Of a stretch of DNA of 64,000 bases, positions 32,112 to 62,737 are shown piece after piece. Under the pieces are notes generated by a model that was not told where the DNA came from, searched no databases, and worked only from the letters and a program-made list of their open reading frames with translations. The stretch lies in contig OX597815.1 in NCBI GenBank assembly GCA_951406725.2, forward strand, positions 148,304,001 through 148,368,000, read 5' to 3'. The position numbers and the translations under genes are program-made. Source of the stretch: Octopus vulgaris. Lineage: Eukaryota. Numbering within the stretch: the stretch's first letter is position 1; every line of letters begins with the position of its first letter.

Positions 32112-32754
32112 TAAGTAATACTAAGCAATTAAGGGTTTAGCAACGAATTGCCTTACCGCACACCGAATTTAGAAATAGCAGTCAAAGAGATTATAGCTAT
32201 TTCTTCTTCTAGAAGGGAGATCACAGTAAAGACACAGCATTTGAAAGGCAAACACAAACAGGTAAGAGAGAATGAATTAACGGCAATCTATCATACAGTT
32301 TTAAGTCACCTACGGACGTACGTTTCGAGATCAAGTCTTAGGAAAGCATAAGAATTAGATAACTCTACCTTACCCAGACTTCTTCTCTCATCAGCGCAGG
32401 ATACAAACAATCATGAATGATTGAATATTGAATTTTGAGATACTAGAAGGCACCATCTCAACTCAGTATCAGAGCGAGCTAGAAGCCACAGCTAGTATCA
32501 CCAAATTCAAAGTATGAATGAAAGCTTGTGTCACCAGTCCCTTCCCACCCGCGTGTAGCCAAGACAAAGTGCTGTGGTCATTTACTGGGATGAATATGGT
32601 TATGAGTAACAATGAAGGGTGAAATTAATTAATTTGGAATAATTATCAATTACACCAAGTAGTCTTCGGCATGTAAAAGCCTCATTCGAGGAAAATTTAA
32701 GTAATACTAAGCAATTAAGGGTTTAGCAACGAATTGCCTTACCGCACACCGAAT
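32112..32754 (-). mobile_element. Retrozyme-like element: 586-nt monomer plus 57-bp terminal direct repeat, inserted in (TA)n
   Basis: Identical TAAGTAATACTAAGCAATTAAGGGTTTAGCAACGAATTGCCTTACCGCACACCGAAT at 32112-32168 and 32698-32754; internal HHR; no recognisable coding sequence. Confidence 0.8.
32309..32400 (-). ncRNA. Type I hammerhead ribozyme with long stem II
   Basis: Minus strand: cctgcg-CTGATGA-gaga[agaagtctgggtaagg...tttcctaagacttga]tctc-GAAA-CGTACG-TC-cgtagg. Full consensus core, 6-bp stem I, palindromic stem III ACGTACGT, GUC cleavage triplet. Confidence 0.9.
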
Positions 32755-32896
32755 ATATATATATATATATATATATATATATATATATATATATATATAT
32801 ATATATATATATATATATATATAAAGGTAAAGTTTACGAAAATAAACAAAAGACGAAGGTAAATGTATTAGTATAGTGCTCAAGAATAGAAAAAGT

Positions 32897-32932
32897 ATTT
32901 TATGTTTCGAGCCTACTCTTTTCGACAGAAAG
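32897..32932 (-). ncRNA. Degenerate minimal hammerhead in a short repeat (32823-32960) related to the 3991 element
   Basis: Minus: ttt-CTGTCGA-aaa-gag(tagg)ctc-GAAA-CA-TA-aaat; core has A6>T and stem III is mutated; downstream sequence resembles that after 4025. Confidence 0.55.
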
Positions 32933-33063
32933 GTACACAGAAAAAAACCAGGAGAGAAGAATATGTATATATGCATATTTATGTATCTGACTCTCTCTCG
33001 TATATATATATATATATGTGCATTTGTGTGTTTGTGTGTGTGTGCGTGTGTGTGCGTGTGTGA

Positions 33064-33376
33064 AGGCGCATGGCTCAGGGGTTAGAGCGTCAAGCTTACG
33101 ATCGTGAGGTACTGAGTTCGGATCCGAGACCGGGCTGCGCGTTGTGTTTTTGAGCATTACACTTTATTTTACGTTGCTCCAGTTCACTCAGCAGTAGAAA
33201 TGACTTGCGACGTCACAGGTGCCAGGCTGTATCGGCCTTTGCCTTTCCCTTGGATAACTCTGGTAGCGTGGAGAGGAGAAGCCGGTATGCATGGGCGACT
33301 GCTGGTCATCCATAAACATCATTGCTCGGACTTGTGCCTGGGAGGGTAACCGATTAGGTGCAATCCCATGGTCTCA
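33064..33376 (+). mobile_element. SINE family C, near full length
   Basis: aggcgcatggctcaggggttagagcgtcaagcttacgatcgtgaggtactgagttcggatcc tRNA-like head with A/B boxes. Confidence 0.85.
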
Positions 33377-34346
33377 GCATATATATATATATATATATAT
33401 ATATATATATATACATATATACGAGAGAGAGAGAGAGAGAGGGAATCAGATACATAGATATGCATATATACCCACATATATGTGTGTATGTTTGTGTGTG
33501 TGTGCGTGTATATATATATATATATATATATATATATATATATATATATATATATATATATATATATGCGTGTGAGTGTATGTATCTATGTATTTATATG
33601 TTTATATGCGTGTATGTCTAAGTGTACCAAGTCCGGCTGAAGCGTACATACCTGACCAAGATACTCTCATCGAAAGCGGCCAGATGAGGTTTATTTTTCG
33701 CCATATCCCCACACATTTCTTCCCTTGGTGCTGCAGTGGTTGTGCTCCATTGGTGAAGAAGTTTTAATCCTGATGCTCAAAAATACCATCAGCAGTAGCA
33801 ATAACACCTTCGCCACTGTGATACCTGTTCCCAGCCTTGTATATTTCTCTCATGTTGGGGAAACTAAAATGTGACACCTGAGGAAAAACTCACATTGAAA
33901 TGGAATCGATAAAAACAGCAAATTCATAAATATTTAGAATAAACTTAAGTAAAGTCTTATGAATGTGGAAAATTGTTCTCCAGTGAATATGTAGGCTGTA
34001 GAAACATATATTTTCAAGCATTAATAATGATTATGAACTTCCATACGTAAGTTCTTTTTGTTATTAATACTATTATTTTTGTTGTTGTGTTGTTGTTGTT
34101 TTAATGAAAGCGCTCGGTCTTATTTGCTCTGGTTGAATCGGTGAGAGCCGGTTGTGAGAGGTTTCATAAGGTCACTTTCCGGAAATTATAAGCTTTGATA
34201 ATTGGATGTTAATTATCGTGGAAGGCATTCAACGACTAAATACCAATCTCATAATCCTAGCTATTCCCAGCAGAGCAGATTTTGGGCGGGGGGGGGGATT
34301 GCTTTGCTCTCATGTCCATTCCTATTTCATTGACATATTTCTCGAA

Positions 34347-60673: not shown

Positions 60674-60780
60674 CATACATACATACATATATACATATAT
60701 ATATATATATATATATATGTATATATATATATATATATATATATATATATATATGTGTGTGTGTGTGTGTGTGTGTGTGT

Positions 60781-61110
60781 GGAGGCGCAATGGCTAGGGC
60801 AGCGGACTCACGGTCAGAGTATTGCCGTTTCGATTCCCAGACCGTGCGAAATGAGTGTTTATTGAGCGAAAACACTTAAAGCTCCACGAAGCTTCGGCAG
60901 GGGATTTTGACGAACCCTGCTGTACTCTTTCACCACAGCTTTCTCTCACGCTTTCCTCCTGTTTCTGTTATACTTGTATTTCAAAGGGCCAGCCTTGTCA
61001 CCCAAAAAACTACGTTAATGGTTCACGTGTCCGTGGAACACTCAGCCACTTGCAGGCTGTTCCATTGATTGAATGAACCGGAACCATCGTCGTTGTAACC
61101 GACGGTGGGC
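60781..61110 (+). mobile_element. SINE family D
   Basis: Matches the 17132 copy with small deletions. Confidence 0.85.
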
Positions 61111-61460
61111 CTTACTAATATGTATATGTGCGTGTGTATGTGTGTGTGTGCCTGTGCGTGTATGTGTGCAGTTGTGGTGGGTTGTACTAGTACACATGCA
61201 TATATACATACAGGTATACAGGTCCGAGATATGATAAACAGAAGTAGATATCATTTGTTCACTTTATACTCGTCACCGAGAAGTTTGCTTGGAACTTCTG
61301 CATTACATGTACCATTGGTAATCTACGAGGATCTCAAACCTCAACAGCAGTAGTTACACATCTAGCATCTAGCTATGCACATCAGATATGCCATATGTAA
61401 GGGCGTGCGCGTATATGCATGTTTGTCCATATTCCATAAAATGTTATATGTTATATATAT

Positions 61461-61824
61461 ATTATATAAAAGGGCTTAGTAAAATAAATTACTTTGCCGC
61501 ATACTGAACTCATTAGAAATAGCAGCTATAAAACTTTTTAAAGCTATTTCTAATACTTAAAGAAAATCTCTCTCATATAGTGTTTGCTTAACTCAACTCA
61601 CAAAAGTTTGGGGTAAGGACATCAAAAAATCAAATGCAAAGGTTTTGCATTTGATTTTTTGATGTCCTTACCCCCAAACTTTTGTGAGTTGAGTTAAGCA
61701 AACACTATATGAGAGAGATTTTCTTTAAGTATTAGAAATAGCTTTAAAAAAGTTTTATAGCTGCTATTTCTAATGAGTTCAGTATGCGGCAAAGTAATTT
61801 ATTTTACTAAGCCCTTTATATAAT
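61461..61824. repeat. Near-perfect 364-bp palindrome (arms ~180 bp, 3-nt spacer GGT at 61641-61643); right arm continues as element sequence to ~61920
   Basis: Arms differ only by single-base homopolymer length changes; the sequence is homologous to the terminal module of the 32112 element. Confidence 0.95.
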
Positions 61825-62737
61825 GTAATAATTTGAATTCGCCTTAAATGGTCCCTTTGCATACTGAACACTTGGTGAAATTGATTAATAATTAATTAAT
61901 TTTACCCTCAATTGTTGAAATGTTATATATATATATATATATATATATATATATATATATAGTACTGTATAAATTAGTTATAACCTGTTGCCGTTGACAG
62001 GTGTCATGCACTTCACCACTGCAAGGTCGAAGTATATGATATCGACAAATAATGCTAATTCCAAACCCTATAGTGTATGTAGTTCTTTGTTGATTAGAAG
62101 CAATATCCAATCATTTATTGAACAATATAAGCTGTAATGAGCAACATGGGATTTCTGGAAATGTCACGTTGCTGCAATTTATATTTATTTAAGTTTTGTT
62201 AATGTATTCACGGACAACTATTATATTACGAATAGGAGAACGCTCGATTGCAAAGTTCATTATTAGATGTAACTTCATAACTAAATGTGTTTCAATCGCC
62301 GACGTTTATGTGGTTCACTAGGATATGATGTGTAATACGCCTAATCAAGACTCATGGTTTTTCAGTCAGTTCCTATTATCTTAATACTGGTAAACTAAGA
62401 TTCAGGAACATATGCCTGAAATTTCATGAAATATTTCTTGTGAGAGAGAAACTACATTCTCTGTATCACGATTGCAACCATAGTGTCTTTTACGGAGAAT
62501 AGTTGGATATGCATGTGAGCAGAAAGTATCCATCACAAAAAGGCTAAAGTCGCTGCACTTAAAACTGCGTTCAAACAATATTCTCTGTGTAACATGGAGT
62601 GCTGGAAGACTTAGGATGATGTATGACAGTGGGCAGGGTCTGTAACATGATTTCGATGGATTGATATTTTGATTCTTGAGTACTTTATATTTTTCATTAA
62701 TTCATCGCTATTTACGGTTTCCGAATATTGCAAATAT

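Follow-up and report, generated by a model that had tools for sequence, protein, structure and literature searches.

The window, a 64,000-nt stretch of Octopus vulgaris DNA (contig OX597815.1, positions 148,304,001 to 148,368,000), carries the repeats at 32k, 54k and 61k listed in Table 1, which are high-copy non-coding elements inserted in (TA)n and provided with a type I hammerhead. The host genome is 2.8 Gb in size and rich in (TA)n, and a first look yielded at least 357, at least 1823 and at least 3008 candidates for the three element families. The tandem unit is about 559-560 nt long in the 61k family, 586 nt in the 32k family and roughly 300-485 nt in the 54k family; units of 560, 586 and 535 nt were measured, and the range across families is 270-586 nt. 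No ORF of a Penelope-like element (PLE) was found inside the repeat units of the non-coding families examined. The insertions share with PLE-derived non-autonomous elements an architecture of partial tandems and inversion, with 5' truncation and a tail confined to one end. On the features testable in sequence, the 32k, 54k and 61k elements are best classed as non-LTR retrozymes or Penelope-like derivatives. Within the window, the 61k and 54k insertions each combine an end at a site termed A with an end at a site termed B, and the 32k insertion ends at A.

Table 1. Hammerhead elements in the window and the parts of their 3'-terminal module
Feature	Positions	Strand	Evidence or remark
P1 hairpin, 61k-family module	61730..61775	+	MFE and centroid fold; double changes at 4/9 pairs
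P2 long-range helix, 61k (61777-87 with 61859-69)	61777..61869	+	Fold and covariation
Interior of 61k P2: P2a, AU-rich spacer (site A), small hairpin P2c (61841-52)		+	
P2a inner hairpin, 61k; 3' strand is segment b (61804-11)	61788..61813	+	Outer pairs canonical 33/33, 11 families
P3 terminal hairpin, 61k; 5' strand overlaps b' (61871-78)	61874..61906	+	43/44 canonical; G-C/A-U swap at pair 2
B-ending arm of inverted 61k insertion	61643..61921	+	Locus L001, arm 278 nt; (TA)n end ~15 nt past P3
A-ending inverted arm of same 61k insertion (P1, P2 5' strand, P2a)	61457..61642	-	179/179 nt identical to B-ending arm
32k element, single orientation, ends at site A	32112..32752	-	1.1 units of 586-nt tandem repeat
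32k type I hammerhead, 1-bp helix III, palindromic loop (dimer type)	32309..32400	-	Descriptor scan
32k module part P2-P2a-P2c-P3, first unit (P3 = 32618-32656)	32618..32752	-	Fold
32k second unit: P1, P2 5' strand, P2a; cut at site A	32112..32204	-	
54k-family module: P2 54495-501 with 54594-600; P3 54607-37; site B ~54648	54461..54650	+	
54k degenerate type I hammerhead (U at core position 3)	54346..54414	+	Read from sequence
54k module, upstream tandem copy	53995..54182	+	
54k insertion, A-ending inverted arm	53753..53850	-	
Decayed partial module (P2a remnant, a', linker)	50160..50313	-	Motif only

The hammerhead found in each unit is of type I and minimal, and its loop III is palindromic, a form that acts as a dimer (PMC4209133). 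One hammerhead per tandem unit is present in seven of the eight multi-copy families, in which it lies 84-148 nt upstream of helix P2; in the eighth, F148, a hammerhead was sought and no convincing one was found. The core often has U3 in the 54k family, and is intact in a sister copy (L079) of the 54k element. The 61k repeat, originally read as a hammerhead element, belongs to a family that has the ribozyme, but the window copy is truncated 7-11 nt past the cut site and lacks it. The hammerhead cut was considered as the end point of insertion arms and discarded, as 9/90 inner ends lie near it against about 5 expected. The main text of a cephalopod repeat annotation (PMC13282606), as far as available, leaves hammerheads unmentioned. 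Animal non-LTR retrozymes, for which an origin as non-autonomous derivatives of PLE pLTRs has been proposed, likewise consist of non-coding units in tandem, each with one type I hammerhead (PMC7229834; bioRxiv 10.64898/2026.07.22.740005); the folds given for them there are per-element MFE folds, whereas the elements described here share a cross-family covarying module with defined junction sites.

This module is a nested, base-paired structure of ~190 nt without a pseudoknot, located at both insertion ends. It consists, in order, of a hairpin (P1), a long-range helix (P2), an inner hairpin (P2a) and a terminal hairpin (P3), and is common to about a dozen families. The original prediction had seen a hairpin followed by segments a-b-a'-b' in three families. 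Its strings at 61k and 54k all lie where it placed them, its 32k strings for a/a' and the hairpin are present, and both the hairpin (P1) and the a/a' helix (P2) are real. Sharing by divergent families also holds; the module is larger than described, with four to five helices, and more widespread. The 61k copy folds with z = -7.5, fully nested, P2 enclosing P2a and P2c. The 32k and 54k window copies are singly unremarkable by fold energy (z = -1.4 each), so that their support comes from covariation. The P2-P2a-P3 layout is the MFE structure of the 32k copy and of several other families, whereas for some single old copies the prediction lacks P2 (pairing probability below 0.1 in 3/11). One nested fold is retained down to 43-55% identity between family groups; the 61k sequence is 48% identical to that at 54k and 73% identical to that at 32k. 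Loops vary widely in length and sequence, the conserved parts being short linker motifs, among them a few invariant bases before P3 (CACU/CUAC-U-G). Only the 3'-terminal part of each unit can be aligned between families.

Pairing is kept while sequence changes, as had been claimed. In a tree-aware test that took in twelve families, the true pairs of P2, P2a and P3 show 13.2 same-branch double changes compared with 3.2 +/- 1.5 in re-paired columns (0/20000). Across 11 families, P2 is canonical in 86/88 cells, outer P2a in 33/33 and outer P3 in 43/44, figures inflated by the setting of helix registers by hand, and most positions show between two and four types of pair; among 5000 trials with family-swapped partners, these levels are reached 0, 1 and 1 times, respectively. 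The majority bases of the eight multi-copy families (16-37 copies each) give 64/64 for P2, 23/24 for P2a (one mis-register) and 32/32 for P3. A model-fitted alignment of 10 sequences, which leans to the structure, has double changes in 20/38 pairs, a number reached by 0/500 shuffles, and 90% pairing compared with 36-49% for slid partners. Variation is also seen within the 61k family: among 35 copies, one pair reads C-G 26 times, U-A 8 times and G-G once. The 120 nested-helix cells of the majority-base table contain 8 G-U and 0 A-C on the hammerhead strand, in agreement with the strand asymmetry originally noted at 32k. At that locus a/a' is complete in the first unit (32745-53 with 32665-73); in the second unit the insertion stops at site A, which leaves segment a unpaired. 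The partial copy predicted at 50160-50313 has the GCTAGGCCACTGGT motif and a GGG..CCC hairpin, but is decayed and is matched by neither the covariance model nor the HMMs. This 50k copy was also considered as the pLTR of a PLE whose ORF would follow it, and this was discarded, since the DNA beside it belongs to a different hammerhead family, on the + strand.

At default filters, a covariance model (R1) built from six group-A sequences misses both the 54k and the F15 family; with filters off, it places the 54k family at full length and in the same register with weak scores (12-17 bits). The 54k window module is likewise matched at full length, weakly (14.5 bits), by a model built from other families. 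With scores this low, homology between the two family groups, via intermediate families, is likely rather than proven by one search; it draws on the weak R1 matches, HMMs, shared linker motifs and hand-set registers. A loose helix descriptor for the module was dropped, its matches being mostly noise. Compared with Rfam 15, 15 module copies yield no match that attains the gathering score of a family (best 33 bits, gathering 54), and the 150 of 186 window matches listed are all below gathering, so the description of a conserved RNA structure of no known family stands. SECIS elements, as found in Naiad PLE 3' UTRs, have no match in the module copies, and the units lack an ORF. A full-text search of open papers (subscription papers, Repbase/Dfam and supplements being outside its scope) returned no account of this module, and neither a covarying cross-family 3' module nor a strict two-site pairing was found described there.

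The ends of the insertions map to two places in the module. Site A is located 2-46 nt 3' of P2a and site B 2-32 nt 3' of P3, the positions being broad and blurred by the TA run, and the segment from A to B measures 80-128 nt. Among 285 TA-abutting element ends from eight families, 115 are at A, 166 at B and 4 elsewhere (281/285 for A and B together); the loci are top matches to module-containing queries, a selection that biases the A and B counts. For queries running 330 nt beyond the P2 start, 129/130 TA-abutting ends are A or B, and 20 further ends do not abut TA. Both sites follow the same pattern, a G-C-closed hairpin and then a CU-then-AU-rich spacer, and the spacers are nearly identical at A and B in the 32k and F255 families. 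Both sites are AU-rich, and microhomology with (TA)n could place junctions without helices.

Inverted insertions pair A with B in 77/80 cases and never B with B; of the three exceptions, one is a mis-hit between families and two involve an end close to P2a. Since the queries selected one arm, the information lies in the partner arm, which is of the other type. Single-orientation copies (n=34, query-biased) end at A in 16 cases, at B in 16 and elsewhere in 2. Within an insertion, the two arms differ by 0.8% (61k, n=19) and 0.6% (32k, n=11), compared with 5.6% and 2.3% between insertions, excluding 3 further 61k/32k loci and 6/8 F15 loci with one end unlabelled; both arms derive from one template. 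Either arm may extend further, and the A arm reaches beyond the B arm upstream in 4/19 (61k) and 3/11 (32k) insertions. Symmetric centres occur in 10/19 inverted insertions of the 61k family and 0/11 of the 32k family; the 10 symmetric 61k centres fit fold-back as well as two primings. As far as the literature searched goes, near-strict A+B pairing tied to a conserved fold is new relative to described PLE tails.

An RT-recruitment or priming signal, one of the functions originally suggested, is the best-supported putative role of the module, because insertion ends map to two fixed module sites. The conserved nested 3'-end module probably loads a Penelope-like RT/endonuclease, itself probably of Neptune type, and sets two priming sites. 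The enzyme would bind the module and cleave a (TA)n target on both strands; of the two 3'-OH ends, one would prime at A and the other at B, aided by AU microhomology. Two cDNAs might then run to the 5' end of one RNA and be joined head to head, or one cDNA might fold back, and where only one site is primed, a copy in a single orientation with its end at A or B would result. The A-to-B segment may thereby represent a long version of the PLE 'tail', with the module as its structural basis. Comparable events are known for the Poseidon PAc element of Anolis, whose protein, a predicted dimer, cuts and extends both strands of an AT-rich target and starts reverse transcription internally, at two sites that lie in a stem loop 3' to the hammerhead, bound the tail and did not differ by strand (PMC11167929); for the octopus elements, cutting of both strands is deduced. 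In Poseidon PAc the sites lie within the ORF and the tail is 30-40 nt (PMC11167929), whereas the elements described here are non-coding, their tail folds into helices, and each site is preceded by a hairpin of its own. The pLTR tails of PLEs similarly extend only one end of inverted insertions, and (TA)n is among the preferred targets of some PLE clades; these tails are optional extensions of 30-40 bp, for which the available portions of the sources describe no RNA structure (PMC8557442, PMC3846280).

Candidate enzymes exist in the genome. Neptune-type PLEs are abundant, with CxxxxCxxC before a C-terminal GIY-YIG domain, a combination that is Neptune/Nematis-like (PMC8557442), and include a young family with 781-aa ORFs; they end in (TA)n, their two ends being about 30-35 nt apart. 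A second PLE clade and a Poseidon-like family are also present. The partner search covered Pfam GIY-YIG, 40 follow-up regions, the second PLE clade and the Poseidon-like family. No autonomous element with the module behind its ORF or as a pLTR homologue, as looked for on the advice of the original prediction, occurs in 125 PLE loci (few families) among the matches listed, and no autonomous partner was found around 240 module loci, so the enzyme is a putative one. Those module matches near PLE ORFs that were inspected belong to insertions of their own, set apart by (TA)n or lying in the opposite orientation.

Retention of the fold for RNA-level reasons, such as stability, circularisation or hammerhead folding in retrozyme circRNAs, with A and B as mere unpaired AU-rich stretches pairing with a (TA)n primer, is rather unlikely. 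Animal retrozymes are indeed expressed as circRNAs with predicted self-paired folds (PMC7229834), the hammerhead of the anole PLE needs protein for cleavage (PMC11167929), and the AU-richness of both sites suits such pairing. Yet this explanation accounts neither for the strictness of the A+B combination, nor for the restriction of alignability between families to the 3'-terminal part of the unit, nor for the finding of a single TA-abutting end in 130 outside A and B when the query runs 330 nt beyond the P2 start.

It is still less probable that priming occurs once, at B, and is followed by fold-back of the cDNA, with A reflecting endonuclease resolution of the returning strand and the module acting partly as a DNA recognition signal. 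Such a course would produce the nearly identical arms and the symmetric centres of the 61k family; self-priming has been proposed for PLE palindromes (PMC3846280), and the tail of Drosophila virilis Penelope is needed for endonuclease recognition (cited in PMC11167929). Simple copying of a B cDNA, however, makes it impossible for the A arm to extend further upstream than the B arm, and neither the 16 single-orientation copies ending at A nor the G-U pairs favouring the RNA-sense strand are in line with it.

The a-b-a'-b' pseudoknot of the original prediction, perhaps as an alternative conformation switching with P2a and P3, is very improbable. Segments b and b' are strands of P2a (3') and P3 (5'), respectively. 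In the 61k family all 8/8 pairs between them are possible (duplex -9.5 kcal/mol), b/b' is paired in 83% of cells among 6 close sequences, and there is a small excess over family-swapped partners (85/5000). Against this, the tree-aware test yields 1.7 double changes compared with 2.3 +/- 1.0 for re-paired columns (14141/20000), and canonical pairs occupy 59/88 cells in 11 families and 39/64 by majority bases in 8. For the remaining 10 families the duplex is worth no more than -0.5 to -5.7 kcal/mol, and both P2a and P3 would need to open. The pairing of TACCA with TGGTA proposed as conserved at 54k is a private variant, TACCA being found in 1/38 copies. An H-type pseudoknot with a covarying second crossing helix was rejected in the absence of a tree-aware signal for b/b'. 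A second catalytic motif, that is, another ribozyme beside the hammerhead already present, is hardly credible: a junction of several helices and the few invariant bases of its linkers recall one, but no Rfam ribozyme matches, and the widely varying loops are not conserved beyond the short linker motifs.

For the preferred reading, a signal that loads the RT and sets two priming sites, a more specific form may tentatively be considered. The module might serve as a two-seat RNA scaffold for a dimeric, telomerase-related RT, in which P2 holds a duplicated 'hairpin-CU-AU-rich' unit and provides one start site per subunit and per strand of the double-strand cut, perhaps with a shared ancestry with boundary elements of telomerase RNA. 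The multi-way junction and small hairpin of the module recall CR4/5 of telomerase RNA. Unlike the telomerase RNA core, the module has no pseudoknot, template repeat or Rfam telomerase match, and belongs to a multicopy mobile element. PLE RTs are the sister group of TERT (PMC8557442).

The module bears on how PLE RTs, the closest telomerase relatives, recognise RNA, a question addressed by one in vitro study so far, and on why PLE insertions are inverted and carry a tail on one side. Its dense natural covariation and two mapped junction sites amount to ready-made helix mutants and rescues. If the proposed loading role is true, the module constitutes a compact cis signal for TPRT of both strands; the two-seat scaffold, if true, would make it the first phylogenetically defined RT-loading RNA domain of PLEs and explain both tails and inverted insertions.

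The module was found in 10/59 arbitrary 10-kb regions, which, extrapolated, roughly corresponds to tens of thousands of insertions genome-wide. Further families were drawn from these regions, from locus flanks and from PLE loci, and twelve were put on the tree. The F15 unit is covered by contigs of four runs not on record as RNA, in which strand and ends are not readable. Two direct fusions of a module family to Neptune-like coding DNA, without a TA run, are anecdotal and hint at template switching.

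The multicopy type I family found within the window (1449 candidates) is distinct, and its 3' end lacks the module and looks self-paired. A short family occurring as inverted pairs shows the same two-end asymmetry as the module families, with a different 3' sequence. The 359-nt retrozyme-like repeat also terminates in (TA)n.

The two divergent families at L218 and L103 were left out of the module statistics. F15, one of the module-carrying families, is present in sequencing runs under four organism labels and is therefore not limited to this assembly.

The two fusions of module families with Neptune-like coding sequence are possibly RT template switches. 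The 781-aa Neptune-like family (L250, L263-L271) carries a hammerhead-like motif, a U3-A8 core variant, about 100 nt upstream of its 3' end. The non-LTR retrotransposon in the window is probably a young copy.

Hammerhead families and retroelements in the window and at numbered loci (L-numbers)
Feature	Location	Strand	Details
Type I hammerhead family	window 49650-50172	+	
Short hammerhead family, inverted pairs	L121, L122, L268		ends 37 and 108 nt past cut
Retrozyme-like tandem repeat, 359 nt	L116:3082-4800		GC-richer; canonical type I hammerhead
Divergent family	L218:130-345		module apparently present
Divergent family	L103:1290-1480	-	module apparently present
F15 family	L185:900-2300		
Module family/Neptune-like fusion	L161:7300-7750	-	no TA run between
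Module family/Neptune-like fusion	L356:100-600	+	no TA run between
Non-LTR retrotransposon	window 34681-38389	-	two long neighbouring ORFs, 869 and 376 aa; RT motifs
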